A DNA stretch of 64,000 nucleotides from Eledone cirrhosa. Lineage: Eukaryota. The stretch lies in contig OZ024766.1 in the NCBI GenBank assembly GCA_964016885.1, positions 19,344,001-19,408,000 on the forward strand, in the 5' to 3' direction. Shown here in pieces: positions 13,549 through 64,000 of the stretch. The number at the start of each line of letters is the position of its first letter. Positions within the stretch are counted from its first letter, which is position 1. The notes beneath the pieces are model-generated. The model did not search any database. It was not told the origin of the DNA and saw only the letters and a program-made list of their open reading frames with translations. Made by a program: the position numbers and the translations under genes.

Positions 13549-16500
13549 CTGTGCTGGGTGTATTTAACTGTGGTACCACCACTACCACTTTACAGAGTGT
13601 ACTGGGTGTATTTAACTGTGGTACCACCACTACCACTTTACAGAGTGTACTGGGTGTATTTAACTGTGGTACCACCACTACCACTTTACAGAGTGTACTG
13701 GGTGTATTATATCATGACACCAACACTACTACTTTACAGAGTGTACTGGGTGTATTTAACTGTGGTACCAACACTACCACTTTACAGAGTGTACTGGATG
13801 TATTATATCATGACACCAACACTACCACTTTACAGAGTGTACTGGGTGTATTATATCATGACACCAACACTACCACTTTACAGAGTGTACTGGGTGTATT
13901 ATATCATGACACCAACACTACCACTTTACAGAGTGTACTGGGTGTATTATATCATGACACCAGCACTACCACTTTACAGAGTGTACTGGGTGTATTATAT
14001 CATGACACCAGCACTACCACTTTACAGAGTCTACTGGGTGTATTATATCATGACACCAACACTACCACTTTACAGAGTGTACTGGGTGTATTATATCATG
14101 ACACCAACACTACCACTTTACAGAGTGTACTGGGTGTATTATATCATGACACCAACACTACCACTTTACAGAGTGTACTGGGTGTATTACATCATGGCAC
14201 CAACACTACCACTTTACAGAGTCTACTGGGTGTATTATATCATGACACCAACACTACCACTTTACAGAGTGTACTGGGTGTATTTAACTGTGGTACCACC
14301 ACTACCACTTTACAGAGTGTACTGGGTGTATTATATCATGACACCAACACTACCACTTTACAGAGTGTACTGGGTGTATTACATCATGGCACCAACACTA
14401 CCACTTTACAGAGTCTACTGGGTGTATTATATCATGACACCAACACTACCACTTTACAGAGTGTACTGGGTGTATTACATCATGGCACCAACACTACCAC
14501 TTTACAGAGTCTACTGGGTGTATTATATCATGACACCAACACTACCACTTTACAGAGTGTACTGGGTGTATTATATCATGACACCACCACTACCACTTTA
14601 CAGAGTGTACTGGGTGTATTATATCATGACACCAACACTACCACTTTACAGAGTGTACTGGGTGTATTATATCATGACACCACCACTACCACTTTACAGA
14701 GTGTACTGGGTGTATTATATCATGTCACCAACACTACCACTTTACAGAGTGTACTAGGTGTATTATATCATGACACCACCACTACCACTTTACAGAGTGT
14801 ACTGGGTGTATTTTATCATGACACCAACACTACCACTTTACAGAGTGTACTGGGTGTATTATATCATGTCACCAACACTACCACTTTACAGAGTGTACTA
14901 GGTGTATTATATCATGACACCAGCACTACCACTTTACAGAGTGTACTGGGTGTATTATATCATGTCACCAACACTACCACTTTACAGAGTGTACTGGGTG
15001 TATTATATCATGTCACCAACACTACCACTTTACAGAGTGTACTAGGTGTATTATATCATGACACCACCACTACCACTTTACAGAGTGTACTGGGTGTATT
15101 TTATCATGACACCAACACTACCACTTTACAGAGTGTACTGGGTGTATTATATCATGTCACCAACACTACCACTTTACAGAGTGTACTAGGTGTATTATAT
15201 CATGACACCACCACTACCACTTTACAGAGTGTACTGGGTGTATTTTATCATGACACCAACACTACTACTTTACAGAGTGTACTGGGTGTATTTAACTGTG
15301 GTACCAACACTACCACTTTACAGAGTGTACTGGGTGTATTATATCATGACACCAACACTACCACTTTACAGAGTGTACTGGGTGTATTATATCATAACAC
15401 CAACATTACCACTTTACAGAGTGTACTGGGTGAATTATATCATGACACCAACACTACCACTGTACAGAGTGTACTGGGTGTATTTTATCATGACACCAAC
15501 ACTACCACTTTACAGAGTGTACTGGGTGAATTATATCATGACACCAACACTACCACTTTACAGAGTGTACTGGGTGTATTATATCATGACACCAACACTA
15601 CCACTTTACAGAGTGTACTGGGTGAATTATATCATGACACCAACACTACCACTGTACAGAGTGTACTGGGTGTATTTTATCATGACACCAACACTACCAC
15701 TTTACAGAGTGTACTGGGTGAATTATATCATGACACCAACACTACCACTTTACAGAGTGTACTGGGTCTATTTTATCATGACACCAACACTACCACTTTA
15801 CAGAGTGTACTAGGTGTATTATATCATGACACCACTACTACCACTTTACAGAGTGTACTGGGTGTATTATATCATGACACCAACACTACCACTTTACAGA
15901 GTGTACTGGGTGTATTATATCATGACACCAACACTACCACTTTACAGAGTGTACTGGGTGTATTATATCATAACACCAACATTACCACTTTACAGAGTGT
16001 ACTGGGTGTATTATATCATGACACCAACACTACCACTTTACAGAGTGTACTGGGTGTATTATATCATGACACCAACACTACCACTTTACAGAGTGTACTG
16101 GGTGTATTATATCATGACACCAACACTACCACTTTACAGAGTGTACTGGGTGTATTATATCATAACACCAACATTACCACTTTACAGAGTGTACTAGGTG
16201 TATTATATCATGACACCACCACTACCACTTTACAGAGTGTACTGGGTGTATTATATCATGACACCAACACTACCACTTTACAGAGTGTACTGGGTGTATT
16301 ATATCATAACACCAACACTACCACTTTACAGAGTGTACTAGGTGTATTATATCATGACACCACCACTACCACTTTACAGAGTGTACTGGGTGTATTATAT
16401 CATGACACCAACACTACCACTTTACAGAGTGTACTGGGTGTATTATATCATAACACCACCACTACCACTTTACAGAGTGTACTGGGTGTATTTAACTGTG

Positions 16501-17345
16501 GTAACACCACTACCACTTTACAGAGTGTACTAGGTGTATTATATCATGACACCAACACTACCACTTTACAGAGTGTACTGGGTGTATTATATCATAACAC
16601 CAACACTACCACTTTACAGAGTGTACTAGGTGTATTATATCATGACACCACCACTACCACTTTACAGAGTGTACTGGGTGTATTATATCATGACACCAAC
16701 ACTACCACTTTACAGAGTGTACTGGGTGTATTATATCATAACACCACCACTACCACTTTACAGAGTGTACTGGGTGTATTTAACTGTGGTAACACCACTA
16801 CCACTTTACAGAGTGTACTAGGTGTATTATATCATGACACCAACACTACCACTTTACAGAGTGTACTGGGTGTATTATATCATGACACCAACACTACCAC
16901 TTTACAGAGTGTACTGGGTATATTATATCGTGGCACCAACACTACCACTTTACAGAGTGTACTGGGTGTATTATATCATGACACCAACACTACCACTTTA
17001 CAGAGTGTACTGGGTGTATTATACCATGACACCAACACTACCACTTTACAGAGTGTACTGGGTGTATTATATCATGACACCAGCACTACCACTTTACAGA
17101 GTGTACTGGGTGTATTATACCATGACACCAACACTACCACTTTACAGAGTGTACTGGGTGTATTACATCATGACACCAGCACTACCAGTGTACTGGGTGT
17201 ATTTTATCATGTCACCAACACTACCACTTTACAGAGTGTACTGGGTGTATTTTATCATGGCACCAACACTACCACTTTACAGAGTGTACTGGGTGTGTTA
17301 TATCTTGACACCAACACTACCACTTTACAGAGTGTACTGGGTGCA
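13549..17345. repeat. 48-bp minisatellite (about 79 units) filling the first coding intron of the L1-family gene
   Basis: Unit ctttacagagtgtactgggtgtattatatcatgacaccaacactacca. Confidence 0.97.
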
Positions 17346-17370
17346 TAGATGAATAAAACTGTTCACTTAC

Positions 17371-17425
17371 CTGCATACACCGACCCAGCTGCAGCTAAGA
17401 GTATATATAAAGTTGTAATTTTCAT
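17371..17425 (-). CDS. L1CAM/neuroglian-family Ig cell-adhesion protein, coding exon 1 (signal peptide)
   Basis: ATG at 17425 gives MKITTLYILLAAAGSVYA+G, followed by a gtaagt donor (acttac 17365-17370). An upstream acceptor tttttcag puts the exon start at 17472, implying a non-coding exon further upstream. Confidence 0.85.
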
Positions 17426-18359
17426 TCTCTTTTCAGTTTTAATTGTCTCGCCTGAGGTTTAGTTGGATAAATCTGAAAAAATATAAAAAGTACTTGATAG
17501 CTTCTGCTACCTTCGTAGGCAGTAAATTGCCAGAGACAAAGTCAGATAAAATCATCATCATCATCATCAGGTTTAGCGTCCGTGTTCCACGCTTGCATGG
17601 GTTTGGGCGGGGGTTTTCCCACTTGAGGCAAGAGTGGTTGTCTTGCTCGCATAGGACTGTCTGGCGGGTTTTCTACAGCTGGATGCCCTTCCTAACACCA
17701 ACCACATTTACAGTGTGGGGCTGGGAGGTTTTTACCGTGTTGCCTACACGGCCACATTTACAGCGTGGACTGTCTGGCGGGTTTTCTACAGCTGGATGCC
17801 CTTCCTAACACCAACCACATTTACAGTGTGGGACTGGGAGGTTTTTACCGTGTTGCCTACACGGCCACATTTACAGCGTGGACTGTCTGGCGGGTTTTCT
17901 ACAGCTGGATGCCCTTCCTAACACCAACCACATTTACAGTGTGGGACTGGGAGGTTTTTACCGTGTTGCCTACACGGCCACATTACAGCGTGGACTGTCT
18001 GGCGGGTTTTCTACAGCTGGATGCCCTTCCTAACACCAACCACATTTACAGTGTGGGGCTGGGAGGTTTTTACCGTGTTACCTACACGGCCACATTTACA
18101 GCGTGAACTGTGTGTTTTTTTGTCGTGACACCTACACGATAAAATGCTTTATAGTATTCAGCCCAGCACTCTGCTCCATTCTTGCCATTCACCCTTTCGA
18201 GGTTGAAAAAAAATACCAGTGATGTACTGGGTAGATTCTTTCTCTATATCTCTTTCTCATTTCCTCTCTATCTTTTAACCCTTTAGCATTTAAAACATCC
18301 ATAACCGGTCAGAATTATCACACCTCTTTCTGTCCTTGTAAGTAGACGAGAAAACAGAA

Positions 18360-19207: not shown

Positions 19208-20272
19208 CCCACTGTAAAGTGGTCGTGGAGGTGCCACGGCAAAAAAGCACCCAGCCCACACCGTAAAGTGGTCATGGAGGTGCCACGGTAAGAAAGCACC
19301 CAGCACTCACTGTAAAGTGGTCGTGTAGGTGCCATGGCAAAAAAGCACCCAGCACTCACTGTAAAGTGGTCGTGGAGGTGCCACAGCAAAAAAAGCACCC
19401 AGCCCTCACTATAAAGTGGTCGTGGAGGTGCCACGGCAAAAAAGCACCCAGCACTCACTGTAAAGTGGTCGTGGAGGTTCCACGGCAAAAAAGCACCCAG
19501 CACTCACTGTAAAGTGGTCATGGAGGTGCCACGGTAAGAAAGCACCCAGCACTCACTGTAAAGTGGTCGTGGAGGTGCCACGGCAAAAAAGCACCCAGCA
19601 CTCACTGTAAAGTGGTCGTGGAGGTGCCACAGCAAAAAAGCACCCAGCACTCACTGTAAAGTGGTCGTGGAGGTGCCACGGCAAAAAAGCACCCAGCACT
19701 CACTGTAAAGTGGTCGTGGAGGTGCCACAGCAAAAAAGCACCCAGCACTCACTGTAAAGTGGTCGTGGAGGTGCCACGGCAAAAAAGCACCCAGCACTCA
19801 CTGTAAAGTGGTCGTGGAGGTGCCACAGCAAAAAAGCACCCAGCACTCACTGTAAAGTGGTCGTGGAGGTGCCACGGCAAAAAAGCACCCAGCACTCACT
19901 GTAAAGTGGTCGTGGAGGTGCCACGGCAAAAAAGCACCCAGCACTCACTGTAAAGTGGTCGTGGAGGTGCCACAGCAAAAAAACACCCAGCCCACACTGT
20001 AAAGTGGTCATGGAGGGGCCACAGCAAAAAAGCACCCAGCCCACACTGTAAAGTGGTCATGGAGGGGCCACAGCAAAAAAGCACCCAGCACTCACTGTAA
20101 ATGAGGTTGGTGTTAGGAAGGGCATCCAGCTGTAGAAATCAAGCCAAATCAGTTCCTGTATGAGCAAGACAAGGTCAGCCAACCGGACACTGCCCACAAC
20201 AGGACAACCCGTCTAACCCATGCTAGCGAGGAAGAACGGACGGAAAACGGTGATGATGATGATGATGATGAT
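19208..20272 (+). mobile_element. Headless 49-bp VNTR array with an alternative tail; a second copy lies at about 27570-28235
   Basis: Same 49-bp unit as family A, but the tail is cctgtatgagcaagac...ctaacccatgctagcg..(gat)n. Confidence 0.75.
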
Positions 20273-26739: not shown

Positions 26740-28943
26740 AAAAGGTAAACCGAAATAACACAAATGGTACAGTATATGGAAGATATATATATATATCATC
26801 ATCATCATCATCATCATCATTTAACGTCTATCTCCCACGCTAGCATGGGTCAGACAAGTTTATCCCGGTGACCGTGTGTCCCTCATATAGAACTCTTTCT
26901 GGCTGGTTTTCTATGGCTGGCTGCCCTTTCTAACACCAATAAATTAGGGCTGTGTACCAGATCCACTAATGCCCTAGAGCCCTGTAGTTATAATGTACGG
27001 CACTGTCGTTCAATATGTGGATAGATTAACTGTGACACTAGAACCCCTCTCAGAAAATATTACTTAAACACCTCTCTCCATATTATTTACTCACCTCAAT
27101 CCGAATTATCACCTGAAAAGAATTTTTTAAATTCTTTTTTTAATTCCTTTTTTAGTTCTTTAATTTCTAATTATTAATTTCTTAATTGTTTAATTTATAA
27201 TTTCTGATATTTGATTTAGGATTTTAATTTTTATTTCCAACTCTCACACTGAACTTACAACGTAAAACCATGATACCTAGAATAAGTTTATTTTCCCTAA
27301 TAAGGTGATGGTCAGTCGTACCGTCAACACTTAGTGAGGGGTAGTGTTATGACCTGTAAAAACTAACACTCTCCCATCCCCTCTGGCTCTTGGCTGACTG
27401 CCACAGCCGTGATGGGTAGCAGTAAAATATGGTACAGGCATTGGTGGGCCATTGTTTGGGATGACGGGGTGAACTGACTAAGCAAATTTCGTTGAAGTCT
27501 GCGGTGGAGAATGGTCAACTTCCTTCGGACATGCGCTTGCGCAGGCCGGTGGGGGTGAATTGGTACCCACAAGTGGTCGTGGAGGTGCCACAGCAAAAAA
27601 GCACCCAGCACACACTGTAAAGTGGATGTAGAGGTGCCACAGCAAAAAAGCACCCAGCACTCACTGTAAAGTGGACGTGGAGGTGCCACAGCAAAAAAGC
27701 ACCGAGCACTCACTGTAAAGTGGACGTGGAGGTGCCACAGCAAAGAAAGCACCCAGCACTCACTGTAAAGTGGTCGTGGAGGTGCCACAGCAAAAAAGCA
27801 CCCACCACTCACTGTAAAGTGGTCATAGAGGTGCCACAGCAAAAAAGCACCCAGCACTCACTGTAAAGTAGTCGTGGAGGTGCAACAGCAAAAAAGCACC
27901 CAGCACTCACTGTAAAGTGGATGTAGAGGTGCCACGGAAAAAAGCACCCAGCACTCACTGTAAAGTAGTCGTGGAGGTGCAACAGCAAAAAAGCACCCAG
28001 CACTCACTGTAAAGTGGTCGTGGAGGCGCCACGGCAAAAAAGCACCCAGCACTCACTGTAAATGAGGTTGGTGTTGGGAAGGGCATCCAGCTGTAGAAAT
28101 CAAGCCAAAATCAGTTCCTGTATGAGCAAGACAAGGTCAGCCGACCAGACACTGCCCACAAACAGGACAACCCGTCTAACCCATGCTAGCGTGGAAGAAC
28201 GGACATATAACGGTGATGCCGATGATGATGATGACAAGATATATATATATATAGAGAGAGAGATAGAATTGTATGTCTGTATGTAAGAGTGTATCGGTGT
28301 GTAAAAGGGTGGAACGGAGATGGTGAAACAACTACACTCTGTGTGAGTGTGTACTTATATATATATATTATTTAACTCTGTCATTGGTTTCAGCCACCAG
28401 GGGGCTATCAAGAGCTTTTGGTCGATCATTCTGAAAACGGTATTTATTAACTTTAACAATCTCTTCTTGGGAGACTGTTAAGTCCTGAGAGGGACATACA
28501 TATTCATATTTGTGTTTTTGTGCATAGTTATTTTTATATACATATTTTTGTGTGTGTGTGTATATATGTACGTATATATATATGTGTGTGTGTGTGTGTG
28601 CGTGTGTGTGTGTGTGTGTGTGCGCGTATGCATAATTATATTATTTTTATATACATATTTGTGTGTGTATATATATATGTGTATATATAAATATATATAC
28701 ATATATACATATATATATATAAATATATATACATATATATATATATAAATATATATATATATATGTGTGTGTGTGTGGTGTGTATGCATAATTATTTTTA
28801 TATACATATTTGTGTGCTTAAGTGTGTATATATATATATATATATACACATATATATATATATATACACATATATATATTTATATATGTATATATACATA
28901 TATGTATATATATATATGTATATATTTATATATACACATATAC

Positions 28944-29354: not shown

Positions 29355-29522
29355 CTACGCCCTCACCTTTAGTACAAGGTAGTAGGAGAGGAAAAAAAGG
29401 GCACTGAGCCCTAAAATTATGTAACACATCATCTTCCGGTTGCTTTTCCCTGAGCTGATCATATGTGAAATTCTATTCATACTGCCTGAGAGAAGTCCCT
29501 GGGAACTGTCGAAATCTGTGCC
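29355..29522 (-). CDS. BET1L: BET1L exon 4 (end of SNARE motif and C-terminal transmembrane anchor)
   Basis: tttctag|[55 protein letters not shown]; total protein 113 aa. Confidence 0.92.
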
Positions 29523-31308
29523 CTAGAAATATATAGAGTGGAGGGTGGAGATGTTATATGGTGAGATGGGGTATGTGGGAGAGAGAGGAGTCCCTGGGAA
29601 CTGTCAAAGACTGGGCCCTGGAAATATAGAGAGTGGAGGGTGGAGATGTTATATGGTGAGATGGGGTATGTGGGAGAGAGAGGAGACCCTGGGAACTGTT
29701 GAAATCTGTGCCCTAGAAATATAGAGAGGAGGGTGGAGATGTTATATGGTGAGATGGGGTATGTGGGAGAGAGAGGAGTCCCTGGGAACTGTCGAAGACT
29801 GTGCCCTGGAAATATATAGAGAGGAGGGTGGAGATGTTATATGGTGAGATGGGGTATGTGGGAGAGAGAGGAGTCCCTGGGAACTGTCAAAGACTGTGCC
29901 CTGGAAATATAGAGAGAGAGGAGGGTGGAGATGTTATATGGTGAGATGGGATATGTGGGAGAGAGAGGAGACCCTGGGAACTGTCAAAGACTGTGCCCTG
30001 GAAATATATAGAGACGAGGGTGGAGATGTTATATGGTGAGATGGGATATGTGGGAGAGAGAGGAGACCCTGGGAACTGTCAAAGACTGTGCCCTGGAAAT
30101 ATAGAGGGTAGGAGAGCAGGAGACCCTGGGAACTGTCAGAGACTGTGACCTGGAAATATAGAGGGTGGGGGAACAGGAGACCCTGGGAGCTGTATAAATC
30201 TGTGCCCTGGAAATATATAGAGAGGAGGGTGGAGATATTATATGGTGAGATGGGGTATGTGGGAAAGAGAGGAGACCCTGGGAACTGTCAAAGACTGTGC
30301 CCTGGAAATATAGAGGGTGGGAGAGAGAGGAGACCCTGGGAACTGTCAAAGACTGTGCCCTGGAAATATAGAGGGTGGGAGAGAGAGGAGACCCTGGGAA
30401 CTGTCAAAGACTGTGCCCTGGAAATATAGAGGGTGGGGGAGCAGGAGACCCTGGGAACTGTCAAAGACTGTGCCCTGGAAATATAGAGGGTGGGAGAGAG
30501 AGGAGACCCTGGGAACTGTCAAAGACTGTGCCCTGGAAATATAGAGGGTGGGGGAGCAGGAGTCCCTGGGAACTGTCAAAGACTGTGCCCTGGAAATATA
30601 GAGGGTGGGGGAGCAGGAGACCCTGGGAACTGTCAAAGACTGTGACCTGGAAATATAGAGGGTGGGAGAGAGAGGAGACCCTGGGAACTGTCAAAGACTG
30701 TGCCCTGGAAATATAGAGGGTGGGGGAACAGGAGACCCTGGGAACTGTCAAAGACTGTGCCCTGGAAATATAGAGGGTAGGGGAGCAGGAGACCCTGGGA
30801 ACTGTCGAAATCTGTGGCCTGGAAATATAGAGAGAGGAGGGTGGAGATGTTATATGGTGAGATGGGATATGTGGGAGAGAGAGGAGACCCTGGGAACTGT
30901 CAAAGACTGTGCCCTGGAAATATAGAGAGAGAGGAGGGTGGAGATATTATATGGTGAGATGGGGTATGTGGGAGAGAGACGAGACCCTGGGAACTGTCAA
31001 AATCTGTGCCCTGGAAATATAGAGAGAGAGGAGGGTGGAGATGTTATATGGTGAGATGGGATATGTGGGAGAGAGAGGAGACCCTGGGAACTGTCAAAGA
31101 CTGTGCCCTGGAAATATAGAGGGTGGGGGAACAGGAGACCCTGGGAACTGTCAAAGACTGTGACCTGGAAATATAGAGGGTGGGGGAACAGGAGACCCTG
31201 GGAACTGTCAAAGACTGTGCCCTGGAAATATAGAGGGTGGAGGGTGGAGATATTATATGGTGAGATGGGGTATGTGGGAGAGAGAGGAGACCCTGGGAAC
31301 TGTCAAAG
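29523..31308. repeat. Minisatellite with 57-58 bp and about 95-bp units, built from the BET1L intron 3/exon 4 junction
   Basis: Minus-strand unit tatatttccag-GGCACAGTCTTTGACAGTTCCCAGGGTCTCCT. Confidence 0.93.
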
Positions 31309-31326
31309 AATATATTTACAACTTAC

Positions 31327-31383
31327 CATTCCATCTAAATATCTGTTAGAATCTTTGGTATCTGATTCTATATCTAGCGCCAA
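31327..31383 (-). CDS. BET1L: BET1L exon 3
   Basis: tcttccag|LALDIESDTKDSNRYLDGM|gtaagt; matches the LALDI...NRYLDGM segment of BET1L. Confidence 0.93.
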
Positions 31384-31519
31384 CTGGAAGACAGAAGAGA
31401 TATATGTATAGTAGAACAATGTGTGTGTGTGTGGGGGGGGGGGTTATATCCGTAGTAGTAGAGCACTTAGTCCATGGGACGAGTTTAGTACAAGTTGTTC
31501 CACAACAGTTAATTCACCA

Positions 31520-32792
31520 TATCATCATCATCATTTTACGTCCGCTTTTCCCTGCTTGCAAGGGTGGGACGGGAACTGATGCTGGCTTGATTTCTACAGC
31601 TGGATGCCCTTCCTAACACCAACCTCATTTACAGTGAGTGCTGGGTGCTTTTTTTTCCCATGGCACCTATACGTCCACTTTACAGTGAGTGCTGGGTGCT
31701 TTTTTTGCCGTGGCACCTCCACGACCACTTTACAGTGAGTGCTGGGTGCTTTTTTGCCGTGGCACCTCCACGACCACTTTACAGTGAGTGCTGGGTGCTT
31801 TTTTTGCCGTGGCACCTCCACGACCACTTTACAGTGAGTGCTGGGTGCATTTTTGCCGTGGCACCTCCACGACCACTTTACAGTGAGTGCTGGGTGCTTT
31901 TTTGCCATGGCACCTCCACGACCACTTTACAGTGAGTGCTGGGTGCTTTTTTGCCGTGACACCTACACGACCACTTTACAGTGAGGGCTGGGTGCTTTTT
32001 TGCCGTGGCACCTCCACGACCACTTTACAGTGAGTGCTGGGTGCTTTTTTGCTGTGGCACCTCCAGGACCACTTTACAGTGAGTGCTGGGTGCTTTTTTG
32101 CCGTGGTACCTCCACGACCACTTTACAGTGTGGGCTGGGTGCTTTTTTGCTGTGGCACCTCCAGGACCACTTTACAGTGAGTGCTGGGTGCTTTTTTGCC
32201 ATGGCACCTCCACGACCACTTTACAGTGAGTGCTGGGTGCTTTTTTGCCGTGACACCTACACGACCACTTTACAGTGAGTGCTGGGTGCTTTTTTGCCGT
32301 GGCACCTCCACGACCACTTTACAGTGAGTGCTGGGTGCTTTTTTGCTGTGGCACCTCCAGGACCACTTTACAGTGAGTGCTGGGTGCTTTTTTGCCGTGG
32401 TACCTCCACGACCACTTTACAGTGTGGGCTGGGTGCTTTTTTGCTGTGGCACCTCCAGGACCACTTTACAGTGAGTGCTGGGTGCTTTTTTGCCGTGGCA
32501 CCTCCACGACCACTTTACAGTGAGTGCTGGGTGCTTTTTTGCCATGGCACCTCCACGACCACTTTACAGTGAGTGCTGGGTGCTTTTTTTGCCGTGGCAC
32601 CTCCACGACCACTTTACAGTGGAATGATAGGGACCCCAGTCCCTATCATCTCATTTCTACAGCTGAGTAAACTGGAGCAATGTGAAATAAAGTGTCTTGC
32701 TCAAGGAAACAACACATCACCCGGTCTGAGAATTGAACTCACAACCTTTCGATTGCAAGGCCAATGCTCTAACCACTAAGCCATGTGCCTCC
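31520..32792 (-). mobile_element. SINE family A, full copy (about 20 VNTR units)
   Basis: Near-identical reverse complement of 974-1852. Confidence 0.85.
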
Positions 32793-33495: not shown

Positions 33496-34427
33496 TACTA
33501 AAAAAACTCTCGCTATTCCCTGTCAATAATATTCTCAAAGGAAAAGGAATCCTGAGCCCTTTATAATACAATATGAAGAAAAGGTAACACACTAGAGAGA
33601 GAGAGATAGTGTGAAATCAATAAAACAGGGAAAACCACCTGCGTATGGAATCTATAACCTAAGAAAGGCAGGGTAGACACACGATAATTAAAAGTATAAA
33701 TTAATGTGTATATACATACCTCTATAACTATATAACTGTTTCCACTTTTGGCACAAGGCCAGCAATTACCCCAGTGTATTACTGGTACTTTATTTTATCG
33801 ACCCCGTAATAAATGTTTCCACTTTTGGCACAAGGCCAGCAATTTTCCCAGTGTATTACTGGTACTTTATTTTATCGACCCCGTAATAAATGTTTCCACT
33901 TTTGGCACAAGGCCAGCAATTGTCCCAGTGTATTACTGGTACTTTATTTTATCGACCCTGTAATAAATGTTTCCACTTTTGGCACAAGGCCAGCAATTGT
34001 CCCAGTGTATTACTGGTACTTTATTTTATCGACCCCGTAATAAATGTTTCCACTTTTGGCACAAGGCCAGCAATTGTCCCAGTGTATTACTGGTACTTTA
34101 TTTTATCGACCCCGTAAGGATGAAAGGCAAAGTTAACTATATAACTATATAACACACGCGTACAAATCAAAAGAGATCTGTTTTGACAGGAAGTTGTTGT
34201 CTCAAATGGAATAGCCTATGGGTCATCAGCGCGTGTAAGACAAATACATTCCAGACAACCGTCCAGCAACACGCGGCAGAGAGATGTGACAGCGTGTTTA
34301 GGGCAGTGAACCAGTGTTATCTGAGGGACGAGCTGCTAGAAAGGGCAGCCCAAAAACCACTCGAAGAAGTGAGTTCAACCAAACAAGACTATACATTCCA
34401 GACAACTCTAAGAGAATCTAAGACAAA

Positions 34428-37400
34428 AAAAAGTACCCACTCCACACTGTAAAGTGGTCATGTAGGTGTCACAACAAAAAGCACCCAGTCCACACTGTAA
34501 AGTGGTCATGTAGGTGTCATGACAAATAGCACCCAGTCCACACTGTAAAGTGGTCATGTAGGTGTCACAACAAAAAGCACCCAGTCCACACTGTAAAGTG
34601 GTCATGTAGGTGTCACAACAAAAAGCACCCAGTCCACACTGTAAAGTGGTCATGTAGGTGTCATGACAAATAGCACCCAGTCCACACTGTAAAGTGGTCA
34701 TGTAGGTGTCACAACAAAAAGCACCCAGTCCACACTGTAAAGTGGTCATGTAGGTGTCACAACAAAAAGCACCCAGTCCACACTGTAAAGTGGTCATGTA
34801 GGTGTCATGACAAATAGCACCCAGTCCACACTGTAAAGTGGTCATGTAGGTGTCACAACAAAAAGCACCCAGTCCACACTGTAAAGTGGTCATGTAGGTG
34901 TCACAACAAAAAGCACCCAGTCCACACTGTAAAGTGGTCATGTAGGTGTCACAACAAAAAGCACCCAGTCCACACTGTAAAGTGGTCATGTAGGTGTCAC
35001 AACAAAAAGCACCCAGTCCACACTGTAAAGTGGTCATGTAGGTGTCACAACAAAAAGCACCCAGTCCACACTGTAAAGTGGTCATGTAGGTGTCACAACA
35101 AAAAGCACCCAGTCCACACTGTAAAGTGGTCATGTAGGTGTCACAACAAAAAGCACCCAGTCCACACTGTAAAGTGGTCATGTAGGTGTCACAACAAAAA
35201 GCACCCAGTCCACACTGTAAAGTGGTCATGTAGGTGTCACAACAAAAAGCACCCAGTCCACACTGTAAAGTGGTCATGTAGGTGTCACAACAAAAAGTAC
35301 CCAGTCCACTCTGTAAAGTGGTCATGTAGGTGTCACAACAAAAAGCACCCAGTCCACACTGTAAAGTGGTCATGTAGGTGTCACAACAAAAAGCACCCAG
35401 TCCACACTGTAAAGTGGTCATGTAGGTGTCATGACAAATAGCACCCAGTCCACACTGTAAAGTGGTCATGTAGGTGTCACAACAAAAAGCACCCAGTCCA
35501 CCCTGTAAAGTGGTCATGTAGGTGTCACAACAAAAAGCACCCAGTCCACACTGTAAAGTGGTCATGTAGGTGTCACAACAAAGAGTACCCAGTCCACACT
35601 GTAAAGTGGTCATGTAGGTGTCACAACAAAAAGCACCCAGTACACACTGTAAAGTGGTCATGTAGGTGTCACAACAAAAAGCACCCAGTCCACACTGTAA
35701 AGTGGTCATGTAGGTGTCACAACAAAAAGTACCCAGTCCACTCTGTAAAGTGGTCATGTAGGTGTCACAACAAAAAGCACCCAGTCCACACTGTAAAGTG
35801 GTCATGTAGGTGTCACAACAAAAAGCACCCAGTCCACACTGTAAAGTGGTCATGTAGGTGTCATGACAAATAGCACCCAGTCCACACTGTAAAGTGGTCA
35901 TGTAGGTGTCACAACAAAGAGTACCCAGTCCACACTGTAAAGTGGTCATGTAGGTGTCACAACAAAAAGCACCCAGTACACACTGTAAAGTGGTCATGTA
36001 GGTGTCACAACAAAAAGTACCCAGTCCACACTGTAAAGTGGTCATGTAGGTGTCACAACAAAGAGTACCCAGTCCACACTGTAAAGTGGTCATGTAGGTG
36101 TCACAACAAAAAGTACCCAGTCCACACTGTAAAGTGGTCATGTAGGTGTCACAACAAAAAGTACCCAGTCCACACTGTAAAGTGGTCATGTAGGTGTCAT
36201 GACAAAAAGCACCCAGTCCACACTGTAAAGTGGTCATGTAGGTATCACAACAAAAAGTACCCAGTCCACACTGTAAAGTGGTCATGTAGGTGTCACAACA
36301 AAAAGTACCCAGTCCACACTGTAAAGTGGTCATGTAGGTGTCACAACAAAAAGTACCCAGTCCACACTGTAAAGTGGTCATGCAGGTGTCACAACAAAAA
36401 GTACCCAGTCCACACTGTAAAGTGGTCATGTAGGTATCACAACAAAAAGTACCCAGTCCACACTGTAAAGTGGTCATGTAGGTGTCACAACAAAAAGTAC
36501 CCAGTCCACACTGTAAAGTGGTCATGTAGGTGTCACAACAAAAAGTACCCAGTCCACACTGTAAAGTGGTCATGTAGGTGTCACAACAAAAAGTACCCAG
36601 TCCACACTGTAAAGTGGTCATGTAGGTGTCACAACAAAGAGTACCCAGTCCACACTGTAAAGTGGTCATGTAGGTGTCACAACAAAAAGCACCCAGTACA
36701 CACTGTAAAGTGGTCATGTAGGTGTCACAACAAAAAGCACCCAGTCCACACTGTAAAGTGGTCATGTAGGTGTCACAACAAAAAGTACCCAGTCCACTCT
36801 GTAAAGTGGTCATGTAGGTGTCACAACAAAAAGCACCCAGTCCACACTGTAAAGTGGTCATGTAGGTGTCACAACAAAAAGCACCCAGTCCACACTGTAA
36901 AGTGGTCATGTAGGTGTCATGACAAATAGCACCCAGTCCACACTGTAAAGTGGTCATGTAGGTGTCACAACAAAGAGTACCCAGTCCACACTGTAAAGTG
37001 GTCATGTAGGTGTCACAACAAAAAGCACCCAGTACACACTGTAAAGTGGTCATGTAGGTGTCACAACAAAAAGTACCCAGTCCACACTGTAAAGTGGTCA
37101 TGTAGGTGTCACAACAAAGAGTACCCAGTCCACACTGTAAAGTGGTCATGTAGGTGTCACAACAAAAAGTACCCAGTCCACACTGTAAAGTGGTCATGTA
37201 GGTGTCACAACAAAAAGTACCCAGTCCACACTGTAAAGTGGTCATGTAGGTGTCATGACAAAAAGCACCCAGTCCACACTGTAAAGTGGTCATGTAGGTA
37301 TCACAACAAAAAGTACCCAGTCCACACTGTAAAGTGGTCATGTAGGTGTCACAACAAAAAGTACCCAGTCCACACTGTAAAGTGGTCATGTAGGTGTCAC

Positions 37401-37745
37401 AACAAAAAGTACCCAGTCCACACTGTAAAGTGGTCATGTAGGTGTCACAACAAAAAGTACCCAGTCCACACTGTAAAGTGGTCATGTAGGTATCACAACA
37501 AAAAGTACCCAGTCCACACTGTAAAGTGGTCATGTAGGTGTCACAACAAAAAGTACCCAGTCCACACTGTAAAGTGGTCATGTAGGTGTCACAACAAAAA
37601 GTACCCAGTCCACACTGTAAAGTGGTCATGTAGGTGTCACAACAAAAAGTACCCAGTCCACACTGTAAAGTGGTCATGTAGGTATCACAACAAACAGCAC
37701 CCAGTCCACACTGTAAAGTGGTCATGTAGGTGTCATGACAAAAAG
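34428..37745. repeat. 48-bp minisatellite, variant B (about 69 units), opposite orientation to 24755-25675
   Basis: Unit cactgtaaagtggtcatgtaggtgtcacaacaaaaagcacccagtcca; continues into a degenerate SINE-like tail at 37745-37912. Confidence 0.96.
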
Positions 37746-37940
37746 CATCTTGCCCGTACTGTAACATGGTTAGCGTTAGGAAAGACATTAAGCCTTAGAA
37801 AACCAGCCAGAAACAGTCAAGACATGGGCACCTGACCCAACTACCTCTAAATGGGACAAACCCGTCTAACCCATGCTAGCATGGAAGATAGACGTTAATC
37901 GCTGATGATGATAAAGGTGTGATAAGTGTAAAGAACTCAC

Positions 37941-38020
37941 CCCTTTTAATCGAGATATTTTGCTGGAGAGACCTTCAACATGGGCTGTATTCTCCTCCTC
38001 CAGCAATGCTTCTGTGCGAC
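37941..38020 (-). CDS. BET1L: BET1L exon 2
   Basis: cacacag|(G)RTEALLEEENTAHVEGLSSKISRLKG|gtgagt; start of the SNARE motif. Confidence 0.92.
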
Positions 38021-38899: not shown

Positions 38900-39975
38900 A
38901 TCATCATCATCATTTCATTTTATGTCCGCTTTTTCCCTGCTTGCAAGGGTGGGACGGGAACTGATGCTGGCTTGATTTCTACAGCTGGATGCCCTTCCTA
39001 ACACCAACCTCATTTACAGTGAGTGCTGGGTGCTTTTTTGCCGTGGCACCTCCACGTCCACTTTACAGTGAGGGCTGGGTGCTTTTTTGCCGTGGCACCT
39101 CCACAACCACTTTACAGTGAGTGCTGGGTGCTTTTTTGCTGTGGCACCTCCACGTCCACTTTACAGTGAGTGCTGGGTGCTTTTTTTGCCGTGGCACCTC
39201 CACGACCACTTTACAGTGAGTGCTGGGTGCTTTTTTGCCGTGGCACCTCCACGACCACTTTACAGAGAGTGCTGGGTGCTTTTTTGACGTGGCACCTCCA
39301 CGACCACTTTACAGTGAGTGCTGGGTGCTTTTTTGCTGTGGCACCTCCACGACCACTTTACAGTGAGGGCTGGGTGCTTTTTTGCCGTGGCACCTCCACG
39401 ACCACTGTACAGTGAGTGCTGGGTGCTTTTTTGACGTGGCACCTCCACGACCACTTTGCAGTGAGTGCTGGGTGCTTTTTTTGCCGTGGCACCTCCACGA
39501 CCACTTTACAGTGAGTGCTGGGTGCTTTTTTGCCGTGGCATCTCCACGTACACTTTACAGTGAGTGCTGGGTGCTTTTTTGCCGTGGCACCTCCACGACC
39601 ACTTTACAGTGAGTGCTGGGTGCTTTTTTGCCGTGGTGCCTCCACGACCACTCTACAGTGAGTGCTGGGTGCTTTTTTGCTGTGGCACCTCCACGACCAC
39701 TTTACAGTGAGTGCTGGGTGCTTTTTTGCCGTGGACACCTCCATGACCACTTTACAGTGAGTGCTGGGTGCTTTTTTGCCGTGGCACCTCCACGACCACT
39801 CTGCAGTGGAATGATAGGGACCCCAGTCCCTATCATCTCATTTCTACAGCTGAGTAAACTGGAGCAATGTGAAATAAAGTGTCTTGCTCAAGGAAACAAC
39901 ACATCACCCGGTCTGAGAATTGAACTCACAACCTTTCGATTGCAAGGCCAATGCTCTAACCACTAAGCCATGTGC

Positions 39976-42803: not shown

Positions 42804-42840
42804 CATTCATGTTGGCACGACCATTTCTCCAGTCCGCCAT
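42804..42840 (-). CDS. BET1L: BET1-like Golgi Qc-SNARE (GS15), exon 1
   Basis: caaaATG gives MADWRNGRANMN+G|gtaaag; the MADW N-terminus matches vertebrate BET1L. Confidence 0.88.
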
Positions 42841-45126: not shown

Positions 45127-46769
45127 GGCATTGGTAAAATATGACGTCCGGGAAAGTGAAACTAGTTTTTCTGACAAGTGAATGTGTTTGTTTTTTTGTT
45201 TTTTTTACAATGAAATTTACGATACACTCTTTGTTTATTTACAACAGGTCTCTATAGTGATATGGTGTTAATTAGTATTGCGTGTGTGATTATTTTTTCT
45301 TTTTCTTTTTTTGTGTATTGTGTGTACGGAAAATTATACTTACCTTATCAACATCCTATACTTACCTTATCAACATCCTATACTTACCTTATCAGCATCC
45401 TATACTTACCTTATCAACATCCTTATTAGACCGTATAAATAGCTGAAATACAGTTGATCATCTCGCCAAACTTGTTGGCACCAACTCTCTGCCGCCAAAG
45501 AAATTCAGCTAAATACGAGGGGAATAAAGCGTCGCTTGTCCCATGTTGTCGACGAAGCTTCTTCTTCGCACGGCTCCAGGTGTTCCCTATGAGTTGTGTG
45601 GGCACATTAGGGTCTTCAGGATCGACAAAGTTCCGTTGGTGCACAACAACATCATGGAGGTAAATGCCACCTTGAATTTCCTCAATATCTCTGACCCAAA
45701 TCCCTTATCATTCACTGTCCTTCTTATGACCCGGCCTTAATTTCTTTGGGGGACAGAAAGTTGGTGCCAACTTTGGCAAGATATTACAAAAACATCTAAA
45801 CGATGATGATGACAAAAACTCATATATATATATACAAACACACATATATATATATATATACATACAGACACACATATATATACACACATATACACACCCA
45901 CACATATATATATATACATACAGACACACATATATATATACACACATATACACACCCACACACATATATATATACATACAGACACACATATATATACACA
46001 CATATACACACCCACACATATATATATATACATACAGGCACACATATATATACACACATATACACACCCACACATATATATACATACATACAGACACACA
46101 TATATATATATAAGAGAAAATAATCACACACGCAATACAGTTTGTTTATTTACAACAGGTCTCTATAGTGATATGGTGTTAATTAGTATTGCGTGTGTGA
46201 TTATTTTCTCTTATATATATATGTGTGGGTGTGTATATGTGTGTATATATATGTGTGTCTGTATGTATATATATATATATGTGTGTTTGGATATATATAT
46301 GAGTTTTTGTCATCATCATCGTTTAGATGTTTTTACCCAAATCCCTTATCATTCTCTGTCCTTCTTATGACCCGGCCTTAATTTGTTTATAGTTGGTGCC
46401 AACTTTGGCAAGATATTACAAAAACATCTAAACGATGATGCTGACACAAACACATATATATATACAAACACACATATATATATATACATACAGACACATA
46501 TATATACACACATATACACACCCACACATATATATATATACATACAGACACACATATATATACACACATATACACACCCACACATATATATATATATATA
46601 AGAGAAAATAATCACACACGCAATACTAATTAACACCATATCACTATAGAGACCTGTTGTAAATAAACAAAGAGTGTATCGTAAATTTCATTGTAAAAAA
46701 ACAAACAAACACATTCACTTGTCAGAAAAACTAGTTTCAATTTCGAGGACGTTATATTTTACCAATGCC
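45127..46769. mobile_element. Defective Merlin (IS1595/ISXO2-like) DNA transposon with terminal inverted repeats of about 165 bp
   Basis: TIR GGCATTGGTAAAATAT... / ...ATATTTTACCAATGCC with TATATATA on both flanks; minus-strand remnant 45426-45690 reads FVDP...TQLIGNTWSRAK...G......YLAEFLWR. Confidence 0.82.
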
Positions 46770-50811: not shown

Positions 50812-51987
50812 CTTTGCCTTTCATCCTTACGGGGTCGATAAAATAAAGTACCGGTAATGTACTGGGTATTTGCTGGCCTTGTGCCTAAAGTAGAAACAAT
50901 TAATTTTCTCCTAATACAGTTTATATATAATATACGAAGGGTGGTCTTTCTGCTAGTAGTGTATAATCATCATCATCATCATCGTTTAATGTCCATATTC
51001 CACGCTTGCATGGGTTTGGACGGGGGTATTCCCACTTGAGGCAAGAGTGGTTGTCTTGCTCGCTTAGGACTGTCTGGCGGGTTTTCTACGGCTGGATGCC
51101 TTTCCTAACACCAACCACATTTACAGTGTGGGACTGGGAGGTTTTTACCGTGTTACCTACACGGCCACATTACAGCGTGGACTGTGTGTTTTTTTGTCAT
51201 GACACCTATACGTTTGGCGGGTTTTCTACAGCTGGATGCCCTTCCTAACACCAACCACATTTACAGTGTGGGACTGGGAGGTTTTTACCGTGTTACCTAC
51301 ACGGTCACATTACAGCGTGGACTGTGTGTTTTTTTGTCATGACACCTATACGTTTGGCGGGTTTTCTACGGCTGGATGCCCTTCCTAACACCAACCACAT
51401 TTACAGTGTGGAACTGGGAGGTTTTTACCGTGTTACCTACACGGCCACATTACAGCGTGGACTGTGTGTTTTTTTGTCATGACACCTATACGTTTGGCGG
51501 GTTTTCTACGGCTGGATGCCCTTCCTAACACCAACCACGTTTACAGTGTGGAACTGGGAGGTTTTTACCATGTTGCCTACACGGCCACATTACAGCGTGG
51601 ACTGTTTGGCGGGTTTTCTACGGCTGGATGCCCTTCCTAACACCAACCACATTTACAGTGTGGACTGGGAGGTTTTTACCGTGTTGCCTACACGGCCACA
51701 TTACAGTGTGGACTGTGTGTTTTTTTGTCGTGACACCTACACGACCTCATTTGTTTCGGGCTGGATGTTGTGACACCAACATAACTTTACATTGAAAGGG
51801 GTGGTGTGGATGGGTTGGGGGTAGTGGGACGGGGGTGTATTTTGTTAGAGATGCCTACTGACTGTAGTAGGTTTCACTTTGCACTTAGGTAAGGCGGGTC
51901 TTCTCGATTACTGTGTAGCGCCAAAGATCTCAGTCCAGTGACATTGTCTTGGAGGGGTGTATAATATATACAGTTTTATATATGCAG

Positions 51988-52068
51988 GTATTGGATGAGA
52001 CACTGCCAATTATGATTCCCGACCCAGCAGAGCTTTCCAAACCCATTGAAGCGGGCAGCATTGAATAA
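51988..52068 (+). pseudogene. Partial duplicate of the start of NAPE-PLD exon 2, with intact acceptor, stop codon and polyA signal
   Basis: tatgcag|VLDETLPIMIPDPAELSKPIEAGSIE* versus authentic VLDKSLPIMIPDRRELSKPPEAGSIR; AATAAA at 52064-52069. Confidence 0.85.
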
Positions 52069-52145: not shown

Positions 52146-53260
52146 GGAGGCACATGGCTTAGTGGTTAGAGCATTGGCCTTGCAATCGAAAGGTTGTGAG
52201 TTCAATTCTCAGACCGGGTGATGTGTTGTTTCCTTGAGCAAGACACTTTATTTCACATTGCCCCAGTTTACTCAGCTGTAAAAATGAGATGATAGGGACT
52301 GGGTTCCCTATCATTCCACTGTAAAGTGGTCGTGGAGGTGCCACGGCAAAAACAGCACCCAGCCCACACTGTAAAGTGGTCGTGGAGGTGCCACGGCAAA
52401 AACAGCACCCAGCCCACACTGTAAAGTGGTCGTGGAGGTGTCACGGCAAAAAAGTACCCACCACTCATTGTAAAGTGGTCGTGGAGGTGCCACGGCAAAA
52501 AAGCACCCAGCCCACACTGTAAAGTGGTCGTGGAGGTGCCACGGCAAAAAAAGCACCCAGCCCACACTGTAAAGTGGTCGTGGAGGTGCCACGGCAAAAA
52601 AAGCACCCAGCCCACACTGTAAAGTGGTCGTGGAGGTGCCACGGCAAAAATGCACCCAGCCCACACTGTAAAGTGGTCGTGGAGGTGTCACGGCAAAAAG
52701 GCACCCACCACTCACTACAAAGTGGTCGTGGAGGTGCCACGCCAAAAAGCACCCAGCACTCACTGTAAAGTGGTCGTGGAGGTGCCACGGCAAAAAAGCA
52801 CCCAGCACTCACTGTAAAGTGGTCGTGGAGGTGCCACGGCAAAAAAGCACCCAGCACTCACTGTAAAGTGGTCGTGGAGGTGCCCAGCACTCACTGTAAA
52901 GTGGTCGTGGAGGTGCCACGGCAAAAAAAGCACCCAGCACACACTGTAAAGTGGTCGTGGAGGTGTCACGGCAAAAAAGCACCCACCACTCACTACAAAG
53001 TGGTCGTGGAGGTGTCACGGCAAAAAAGCACCCACCACTCACTACAAAGTGGTCGTGGAGGTGCCACGGCAAAAAAGCACCCAGCACTCACTGTAAAGCG
53101 GTCGTGGAGGTGCCACGGCAAAAAAACACACCCAGCACTCACTGTAAATGAGGTTGGTGTTAGGAAGGGCATCCAGCTGTAGAAATCAAGCCAGAATCAG
53201 TTCCCGTCCCACCCTTGCAAGCAGGGAAAAGCGGACATAAAATGAAATGATGATGATGAT
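52146..53260 (+). mobile_element. SINE family A, full copy (about 17 VNTR units)
   Basis: Same head, VNTR and tail as 974-1852. Confidence 0.85.
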
Positions 53261-57794: not shown

Positions 57795-60700
57795 CTACAG
57801 GCTGATATAGAGAGAAGACCCATTCACTCTGGCCATTCTCCCTACTTTCACCCACCTTTCATAAAACTTGCTGGGGTAGAGCACCTCTCTCTCCATTCTG
57901 ATCCTTCTTTTAAAATGGTATTTGAAAAAGGGGACCAGTTGTTGGCCGGAGAGAAAGGTGTCTGACCTCAGCCCTTTCAGCCTCGTCCACCATACAACTT
58001 CTTTAGCCATGGCTACCACACAGAGAAAAACCGCCTCTCCTTCGTTTTTGAAAGGGGGAGGCGGTTTGATCGTGACAATGGACTCGGTGGTCAACCGGAT
58101 TGGTCCCACCCTCGACAGTAGTCGTTCCACATAGCCCCACAGGTCAGCAATGCCTGGGCAGTGTACGAATGCGTGCGCAACGGTTTCGTCATCATGCACG
58201 CATCTCGGACAGATCTTATTCAAAGGATCTCTACCCAGGCTCCCATGTCTGTGGAGCTTGTCTCGAACGGGTAGAGCCCCTCGGTAGCACTGCCAAGCCA
58301 GGGACTTTTGGAAGTTGTCCATCGGTCCAGGGCCAAACGTCCTACCGAACAGACTGGCCAGTTCATCTTCCTCCATGCCTAGAGCTTCTCCGAGAGCATC
58401 GTCGCACCTGCTGCGTACCAACCCTCTATAGAATGTCGAGGTGGAGTCTCCACTGATTGCCGGGTCCGCTTTCCAGAGGGCCGTGAGCGCCTGGGCACAT
58501 TCAATGTGCCAGTCGCCCACTTTTCTCGGTCTTTGCTTGACCCAGGATTGCAGCTCGGTGAGCGAGACGAGTCTGGGAAAGGCTCGCCTCACAAACGGGG
58601 CCCACACCGGTTGACCGGTGAGGAATACCTGGAGGTGCCGTAGCCTTAATGCGTGTTTACGCATCTGTAGCCACGGCATCCCCAGCCCTCCTTTCGAAGG
58701 GTGTTGACAGCAGATGGATCTCCTCACCAAAGGGGTCCGCTTGTTCCAAAGAAATTGGAACAGCGCGCACTCCATTTTGGCGAGTCTTTTCACTGGGCAA
58801 GGCACGACGGTCAAGCGGTAGTAGATGACGGATGCTATATAAGTATTCGCCACCTCCGCTCGACCTTTCAGGGATAGTTTGCACTGGGCCCACTTCTGGG
58901 TGAGTGCAAACACCCTGGCCGTTACCTCGTTCCAGTTTTTCTCCACCTGGAGGTCTGGTCCGAACCAGACCCCAAGCAGCTTCACCGGGCCCTCCGTCCA
59001 GCGTCCGACGACGTCGTTGGAGGGCATCGGTTTGCCTCTCCGTGTTCCGAGTTGCAAACCGACGGACTTGTCCCGGTTCAGCTTGGCTCCTGTAAACCTT
59101 TCATATTCCTCCAGTAAGGTGCCGATCTCACCGATTTGCGAGGTTTTCGACACCATTACTGTCACGTCATCGGCGTAGGCCGACGCCGCTTTCTGCAATC
59201 CCGGTTCCAAAGGGATGCCCTGCAACCGCTCCAACTTCCGCAGTAGTGGCTCAAGAGCCAGCACATACAGTAGGGAGGAGAGAGGGCATCCCTGTCGGAT
59301 GGATCGCATGATTTGGAACGGCTCCGAGAGGTGGCCGTTCACCTTGACCCTTGAGCAGACGTTGCTGCTGTGCATCGCAGCAATCCAACCCCTGAAAACG
59401 GGTCCGAAGCCTGCCGCCGCGAGCACCGCATCCAGGTAACGATGGTCAACCCTATCGAAAGCTTTAGATTGATCCAAGTTGATCAGGGCCCCACCAAAGC
59501 CGGGTTCATTCCCTACCCTCTCTATGATGTATCGCATAAGGTGGAGATTGTCGTGAATGGACCTGGACGGGATTGCGCATGTCTGCGCTTCTCCCACCAG
59601 GTTTCCAACGACAAGCGCCAACCTCTTCGCTAACACCTTGGCCAAAATCTTTAACTCTGTATTTAGCAGAGTTATGGGCCTGAAGTTACTTATGTCATCC
59701 CCCTTGTTCTCATCCTTCCTCACCAGCGTAACTACGCCCTTGGTCACAGAACTGGGAATTCTCCCGTTCTGCTGCCAGTTGCAGTAGACCGCTTCGAGGA
59801 TATCGGAGAACAAGTCCGGCATCGCTACATATAGCTCGTATGGTAGACCATCGAGACCCGGGGATTTGCGTTTGCCGCATTGGCTCAGCGCCGCCCCTAT
59901 CTCAGCAGCTGAAATCGTCCTTTCGCAGGACTTCGCCTCCGCGTCCGAGAGGCGCGGCAGACCGTCGAGGTATGGATTGAAATCCATAGTCTCACCCGGC
60001 GCGCCGCCCCTCTCGAACAGTCGTGCAAAGTGCCGCTGAAAGGCCGCACACATCTGCCCAGGTTCAAGGATCACACGCCCATCCTGGTCCTTCAAAGACC
60101 GAATCGTGGACTTGTTCCCACTTTTTGCCTCTGTCACTCGGGCCCAGCTTACAGCTTTGGCTCCCTCATTACCCAGAGCACGTATTTTACTCCTGACAAC
60201 GCAGCCTTCATGCTTCACCTCAAAGAACTGGTCTAAGGCCATTCTTGATGCCAGCACGCCGGCTACATTGCCACTCCTAATCGCCTCTTCTACTCTATCT
60301 ACTAATTCCCTTTCCGTCTTGTTCCTATCTCTTGCTAATTCCTGACTAAAACCTATCGATTCTATTCTAATTGCTCTCTTAAGAGAGCTCCACCACCTGT
60401 TGTTGACAATTGCCCCTGTCAAATTCTGCTTAACTAACGTGCTAATCCGTTTACTGTAAGCTTTGCTTCTCGGTAAGGACAAGTTCAGCTTCCAGTAACC
60501 GGGTCCCTGTCTATGGGTTCTATCAAGGTTGGCTATGCAGGTCACTAACTTGTGATCCGAATAGTCAACCATGAACATTTTTGGACAGCTAAATGTGTCC
60601 CTATCGTTCTCTCTAACTAGGACCCTATCTAGGTACGACCTAGATGTTCCACTGCGATTGGTCCACGTCCATAGTGGTACAGTCGGAAAATCTAGTCGAT

Positions 60701-61232: not shown

Positions 61233-61253
61233 GTTGGTTAAAAGAGGAAGGAC

Positions 61254-62996: not shown

Positions 62997-64000
62997 TTCT
63001 ATTAGTTTGCCGTAATAAATTTTTAACTGGAAAATTCGCCCCAAAAAGGGGCGAAAATAAATAAACTCAAAGTTTGACGACCAAGGCAAGGGGTTAACGT
63101 ATATTACAGTATAAAAAAATTAATCAAAACTCACTTTTTGAGTAAGTAAATCCGACTCGGTAGCCGAGCTTGTTCACACACGTCAACACACGTCTCTCGT
63201 ATACGAGATGTTATGTGAGATATTATGTGAGGTAAAGCCTTTACTGTGACAATACAATAGTATATATAGAGTAATGTAAATGTTATGTGAGGTATTATGT
63301 GAGGTAAAGCCTTTACTGTGACAATACAATAGTATATATAGAGTAATGTAAATGTTATGTGAGATATTATGTGAGGTAAAGCCTTTACTGTGACAATACA
63401 ATAGTATATATAGAGTAATGTAAATGTTATGTGAGATATTATGTGAGGTAAAGCCTTTACTGTGACAATACAATAGTATATATAGAGTAATGTAAATGTT
63501 ATGTGAGGTATTATGTGAGGTAAAGCCTTTACTGTGACAATACAATAGTATATATAGAGTAATGTAAATGTTATGTGAGGTAAAGCCTTTACTGTGACAA
63601 TACAATAGTATATATAGAGTAATGTAAATGTTATGTGAGGTAAAGCCTTTACTGTGACAATACAATAGTATATATAGAGTAATGTAAATGTTATGTGAGA
63701 TATTATGTGAGGTAAAGCCTTTACTGTGACAATACAATAGTATATATAGAGTAATGTAAATGTTATGTGAGATATTATGTGAGGTAAAGCCTTTACTGTG
63801 ACAATACAATAGTATATATAGAGTAATGTAAATGTTATGTGAGATATTATGTGAGGTAAAGCCTTTACTGTGACAATACAATAGTATATATAGAGTAATG
63901 TAAATGTTATATGAGATATTATGTGAGGTAAAGCCTTTACTGTGACAATACAATAGTATATATAGAGTAATGTAAATGTTATGTGAGATATTATGTGAGG

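Follow-up and report, generated by a model that had tools for sequence, protein, structure and literature searches.

An apparent 'mirage' minisatellite in an octopod BET1L gene: 23 upstream copies of the exon 4 splice acceptor

The closest described counterparts of the array reported here are the 'mirage' minisatellites of amphioxus. According to the accessible text of the two reports, they occur in Adh3, in the globin genes BflGb6 and BflGb9, and in troponin C and PGBD5, the last two having been added in PMC3902484 (PMC3087553, PMC3902484). Unit lengths range from 10 to 160 bp in the published cases (PMC3087553), and RT-PCR indicated that these lancelet arrays left splicing undisturbed (PMC3087553, PMC3902484). 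A related situation is known in humans. The available part of the source on the CBS variant c.844_845ins68 describes strong preference for the distal site and normal mRNA (PMC2630376). Human minisatellites are also known on the donor side, in F7 IVS7, 6-16, CBS IVS13, lamin B2 and PDGF. As far as the accessible sections of the source go, these donor-side arrays carry up to 25 pseudo-sites and the exon-adjacent site is mostly used, with two pseudo-donors being used in the 6-16 and CBS IVS13 arrays (PMC1557585). No cephalopod mirage was found in the literature searched, which took in few subscription papers.

The window analysed here, a stretch of 64,000 nucleotides of Eledone cirrhosa contig OZ024766.1, carries on its minus strand a four-exon gene that we assign to BET1L. 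Coding exon 1 (42804-42840, from the ATG) was located by tblastn with residues 1-13 of the O. vulgaris protein P0001, and a GT donor follows it. Exon 2 (37941-38020, 80 nt) matches residues 13-39 of P0001 at 89% and is flanked by AG and GT. Exon 3 (31327-31383, 57 nt), also found by tblastn, ends at a phase-0 donor, ATG/GTAAGT, and the complete coding part of exon 4 (29355-29522), 95% identical to P0001, carries the end of the predicted SNARE motif, the C-terminal membrane anchor and the stop codon. Joined together, the exons encode 113 aa in one open frame, and each of the three introns has GT..AG ends. The product is identical to the Octopus vulgaris protein at 105 of 113 positions, and likewise to O. 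sinensis XP_029652093.2, named BET1-like. Its best named mollusc matches are BET1-like proteins, so that the sequence points to an octopod BET1L; the choice of BET1L over BET1 follows database names rather than a tree. The Pfam SNARE match (E=0.0011, 19.3 bits) lies under the curated cut-off of 26.8, and the anchor is clear (maximal Kyte-Doolittle-19 value 2.11). As in the Golgi SNARE BET1L/GS15, a short predicted SNARE is followed by a C-terminal anchor, and the octopod protein itself has nothing unusual. At the exon 3 position that we take to be the SNARE zero layer, octopus and one further relative have Ser (KDSNRY), and bivalve and brachiopod relatives often have Gln (KDQNRY).

Exon 4 is probably the terminal exon, since full-length octopus BET1L models all share its ending and since the first AATAAA 3' of the stop codon, a candidate poly(A) signal at 28443-28448 (-), lies 909 nt from it. 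A donor-like sequence, AAG/GTGAGG (29361-29369, -; boundary at 29366), is found 156 nt past the exon 4 acceptor. It matches the donor consensus at 7 of 9 positions, as do the donors of introns 2 and 3. It sits in the last codons of BET1L (K-V-R), of which K-V is kept in most aligned molluscs, and annotated octopus proteins read through it. Judged by its sequence, it is a candidate for a U1 site or for a donor that is read through.

Intron 3 (29523-31326, -) is 1804 nt long, from the donor GT at 31326 to the complete exon 4 starting at 29522, and TRF arrays fill 99% of it. As assembled, it consists of 18 unique nucleotides, one truncated unit and 23 copies of the exon 4 acceptor with the head of the exon, hereafter decoys. 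The unique sequence (31309-31326) lies directly behind the donor, where the first-pass annotation had placed it. The truncated unit (31222-31308) starts at exon-head position +9, lacks an acceptor of its own and ends in the acceptor of decoy 1, use of which would define a 105-nt intron. The 23 tandem units that follow (29523-31221) each comprise about 33 nt of exon 4 head and an intron tail ending in YAG; our count agrees with the earlier estimate of about 23 copies. Decoy exon starts run from 31221 to 29617. They fall into two length classes, ten of 93-97 nt (long) and 13 of 57-58 nt (short), and 18 distinct sequences were counted among the 23. The copy at 29712 begins, as had been noted, with the same ttctag followed by GGCACAGATTTC as the real site. 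A 32-nt probe for acceptor and head reached 24/32 or more at 24 positions of the array, and its best score elsewhere in the window, on either strand, was 20/32, so the array is far beyond chance; the acceptor plus exon-head pattern had no match elsewhere on the minus strand of the window. At the donor end, the 18 unique nucleotides finish in ATATATT, resembling a unit tail. They join straight to exon-head +9 (31300-31308, -), and an acceptor expected about 23 nt past the donor is absent.

Four features known from mirages were found here. The head-to-tail repeat unit spans an intron/exon boundary of its host; all 23 units keep YAG and the truncated first unit has no upstream acceptor of its own; the units are of minisatellite size and variable (57-58 and 93-97 nt); and shared differences, rather than a unit tree, suggest concerted evolution (19 of the 23 units at +8/+9, all of them at +30), with the authentic copy set apart. 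Judged by these features, the array is a mirage minisatellite. The amphioxus units, too, keep their splice signals, vary in length and evolve in concert, with a distinct copy at the authentic boundary, and BflGb6 has the same polarity as BET1L, an intron 3' end joined to the 5' part of an exon, according to the available text. Unlike the amphioxus cases described there, the present host is a mollusc, the number of extra copies is 23 as compared to 3-6 units in BflGb6, and the array fills 99% of its intron and precedes a probably terminal exon. For the amphioxus mirages, both correct splicing and differences in length among alleles have been demonstrated; for the BET1L array, correct splicing would be a prediction from sequence. 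In CBS c.844_845ins68 an intron/exon junction is likewise duplicated, although this is one extra copy at an internal exon and a human polymorphism. The human donor-side arrays resemble that of BET1L in that the terminal unit spans the splice site; they differ in repeating 5' donors, in mirror image, and in showing some leak to nearby sites in the accessible part of the source.

The junctions within the units suggest how the array may have arisen. The exon-derived part of the unit ends in CTTCTCTC and then runs into a (CT)n tract. This microhomology suggests slippage or unequal exchange involving the exonic CTTCTCTC and, some 60 nt upstream of the acceptor, a (CT)n tract. After the initial duplication, expansion, shortening of 13 units and homogenisation would have followed. 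As the first unit is without an acceptor, at least one deletion would have trimmed the 5' end, and the ancestral intron length is unrecoverable. The derived change AT>TC at +8/+9, which turns Asp into Val at codon 3, is common to 19 of the 23 decoys. The real exon 4 keeps Asp, and Asp or Glu is found in all 11 aligned relatives that have the region. The real head reads ...GATTTCGAC...ACTTCTCTCAGG; every decoy differs from it by +30 and beyond, and the difference at +30 is shared by all of them. This pattern fits homogenised non-coding copies beside a constrained coding exon. A metagenome scan for orthologous sequence gave four weak loci (36-52% identity, E about 1e-4).

Tandem arrays of period at least 12 and at least three copies make up 57% of the window. 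Twenty-nine tandem arrays reach at least 200 nt, and many match sequence elsewhere in the window. A duplicated boundary was found in two of the 11 candidate exons checked: BET1L exon 4 and an exon of the neighbouring gene at 53421 (+). This second exon matches human NAPE-PLD (E 5e-51), and a single copy of its acceptor and head lies at 51957-52062 (+), 89.6% identical over 106 nt. Given this array density and the second duplicated boundary, boundary duplication looks here like a by-product of general repeat instability. The diverged NAPE-PLD-like copy, made of intron tail, acceptor and the first ~75 nt, falls in two parts (50894-50967 and 51957-52062, +), separated by about 1 kb that includes a dispersed repeat. 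It keeps the frame over 26 codons, up to a stop, with two AATAAA directly after, and from its sequence it may serve as a short alternative terminal exon.

Other features of the window were recorded. A dispersed element, labelled SINE-like by eye, is present in many copies (1145-1743, 13575-17343, 19210-20101, 27571-28062, 31628-32621, 34423-37747, 39013-39808 and 52317-53148) that hold inner tandem arrays of 3 to 79 units, each of 48-49 nt, and that bring the tandem-repeat share of the window to about 62%; a dispersed repeat lies at 31445-31625. Downstream of BET1L, an 18-nt candidate micro-exon (27096-27113, -; ttttcag/.../gtgagt) and an exon with an ATG and a signal-peptide-like start, MKITTLYILLAAAGSVYA (17370-17471, -), are likely the 5' part of the next gene. 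An apparently intact LINE (57795-63119, -) encodes 1152 aa in a frame whose domains are endonuclease, reverse transcriptase and zf-RVT; upstream of it lies a 621-aa frame with a weak zinc knuckle. At 45335-45760 (-), a transposase-like fragment (by eye) is followed by four copies of a 22-nt unit containing AG/GTAAGT. This small array (45335-45423) was considered as a donor mirage and rejected: by eye it follows the stop of the transposase-like fragment, an unconfirmed exon.

We compared the decoys with the real acceptor. Around the AG itself, the decoys equal or surpass the real acceptor. Position -3 is C in 22 of the 23 decoys and T at the real acceptor, CAG being usually preferred over TAG, and the -20 to -4 region contains 13-15 pyrimidines in the decoys as compared to 13 at the real site. 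Further away, the decoys and the real site are unequal. Ten decoys follow a long stretch (93-105 nt), share 56-58 of 60 nt with the real intron tail (56 in decoy 1) and have an ATCTCAC branch-like motif at -38 to -42. The other 13 follow a 57-58 nt unit, have no branch-like motif and show an AG-free zone of 31-32 nt. Contrary to the first-pass annotation, the upstream acceptors are thus not all near-identical. Past +33, the decoys run into pyrimidine- or CU-rich sequence, and none of the 23 has the purine-rich continuation of exon 4: the purine fraction at +31 to +90 is 0.60 in exon 4 and 0.22-0.35 in the decoys, with four purine-rich motifs behind the real acceptor and none behind any decoy. 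As regards splicing enhancers and silencers, these values are crude composition counts and not tested motifs. No donor-like site above 6/9 was found among the 98 GY sites of intron 3, as compared to 7/9 at 29366, and no canonical poly(A) signal was found in the array, which has one AATATA, at 31316.

Only the last acceptor leads to the anchor, as the first-pass annotation had stated. All 23 decoy frames end earlier, after 23-150 codons; nine are in frame by distance, yet they also stop before the anchor. Two further statements made there were borne out, the most donor-proximal decoy (31221) reaching its TGA after 74 codons and the decoys 95, 190 and 283 nt upstream of the real site being out of frame (remainders of 2, 1 and 1 on division by three). 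No hydrophobic segment was found in the tails of the 23 decoys, with maximal Kyte-Doolittle-19 values of -0.06 to 0.61 as compared to 2.11 in the real tail. The decoys were rejected as a protein-coding repeat, as their frames shift and all of them stop within 23-150 codons. Recursive splicing was also rejected as weak. Three of the 23 decoys begin with GT (CAG/GTCACA, 6/9), and a donor regenerated by joining such a decoy to exon 3 matches at 4 of 9 positions by hand count.

On balance, we think it likely that the array is a tolerated by-product of repeat instability and that splicing goes mainly to the last copy. Duplicating an intron tail together with an exon head would always leave a complete exon behind the last copy, and exon definition would be expected to favour that copy. 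It alone continues into purine-rich exon sequence, has a donor-like site 156 nt further along and lies closest to AATAAA. The donor-like sequence at 29366 is a candidate U1 site that may support exon definition. As described in the accessible part of one source, exon definition includes a link that ties the poly(A) site to the last 3' splice site (PMC5473595); such a link would pick the last copy. Against this reading, the AG context of the decoys is no weaker, and splicing to decoy 1 would make an intron of only 105 nt. Furthermore, in human internal exons the preference for the upstream 3' splice site is described as general, and as reduced but not reversed by exon definition for exons with long introns, in the available part of the study (PMC9225289). 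This preference, the short decoy 1 intron and the leaky donor minisatellites make some leak to the decoys plausible. The first-pass annotation had proposed that either the spliceosome must skip more than 20 upstream acceptors or the array yields truncated, anchor-less isoforms in proportion to copy number. Skipping is the likely branch in our analysis, but it has precedent in the lancelet mirages and in CBS 844ins68.

A stronger form of leak appears unlikely to us. A sizeable share of transcripts would then be spliced to decoys, mostly decoy 1 and the other long-unit decoys, giving SNARE fragments without an anchor or lowering the BET1L dose with array length. The ten decoys that retain a branch-like motif, a pyrimidine tract and YAG are consistent with this. 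Stop codons in a last exon escape junction-dependent decay, and the decoy stops would do so if exon 4 is terminal. In the accessible part of the source, the donor minisatellites also show partial use of pseudo-sites (PMC1557585). Annotations of two other octopuses contain BET1L models without an anchor: P0020 of O. bimaculoides stops two residues past exon 3, and P0009 of O. vulgaris departs from exon 4 behind GLLTG. Their tails are however unlike those encoded by the decoys and thus do not come from such an array; among the matches listed, the alternative tail of P0009 had none in the window (best E 2.3). The tails encoded by the decoys differ from one another in reading frame and are 23-150 aa long, with no sign of constraint, and decoy use would lengthen the distance from stop to AATAAA from 909 nt to 1031-2551 nt. 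The acceptor-type precedents, as far as their available text goes, splice normally.

An extended version, which we consider quite improbable, would make the array a length-variable dial of BET1L. Decoy 1 and the long-unit decoys would divert splicing to fragments that lack the anchor and escape decay, and selection would have homogenised the array towards branch-less units masked by a hairpin. If true, it would mean that silencing of decoy acceptors evolves via concerted evolution.

The hairpin was also considered by itself. On this view the decoys would be kept silent by a local structure that covers the acceptor G together with the exon head, and decoy-specific changes making it stronger would have been selected while the array was homogenised; we hold this to be very unlikely. 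The predicted fold of -4 to +26 reaches -9.6 kcal/mol in 15 of the 23 decoys and is stronger in 20 of them than at the real site (-4.2). The +8/+9 change alone gives -7.6, a value that 5 of the 225 adjacent double changes attain (2.2%). This observation is post hoc, however, and 9.7% of 2925 double changes do equally well. Long-unit decoys 6, 16 and 22 do not exceed the real site in stability, and ensemble folding also predicts base pairing of the acceptor G at the real site (unpaired probability about 0.01). Template switching yields, neutrally, dinucleotide changes that perfect quasi-palindromes, and the +8/+9 change may have arisen in this way. The hairpin was thus rejected as sole cause, given the three long-unit decoys and the paired real site, and the folding predictions would make it at most a helper of the favoured choice of the last copy.

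That the array is an assembly artefact, absent or much shorter in the real genome, is highly improbable. Of seven sequencing runs listed, none of them as RNA, four unlabelled ones from one study were compared over 31190-31625, three RAD-seq runs being left out. The four contain 0.16-0.36 of the sampled words, and their contigs behave as DNA; no spliced junction was among the rows listed, which in runs of this kind says nothing about acceptor use. One contig of run X1 matches 31280-31412 at complete identity and thereby runs unspliced from exon 3 through the donor into the array. Exon 3 is covered in this one run of the four; summed contig depth in it is 204-359 on the repeat part and 7.08 on exon 3, a ratio that is not a copy number. 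Variant units recur across runs, a form shorter by 37 nt in three of the four and a G>C variant of the decoy 6 head in two, and the 18 distinct sequences among the 23 units, in two length classes, also argue against an artefact. On the other side, none of the contigs compared over that interval spans the array, the word share is at most 0.36 in any run, and all four matching runs come from one study that may include the assembly's own sample. Overall, the array is very likely real in the genome, with a copy number that may differ from the assembled one. Finally, a BET1L copy damaged by the array, and weakly functional or a pseudogene, is hardly credible in view of the intact 113-aa frame, the canonical splice sites and the 105/113 identity to the O. 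vulgaris and O. sinensis proteins with conservative changes.

Taken together, the data extend mirage repeats to a cephalopod. The kind of repeat is already known, the animal group is new, and the array is probably tolerated; by itself it gives no pointer to new biology. Gene annotation can be misled by such arrays. The locus also provides a natural competition assay, with 24 acceptors placed before a probably terminal exon and differing in a graded manner: some have the branch motif and others lack it, some read CAG and others TAG, and hairpin strength varies among them. Diagnostic bases in the exon heads would make acceptor use in BET1L readable from one deep RNA-seq or long-read set.
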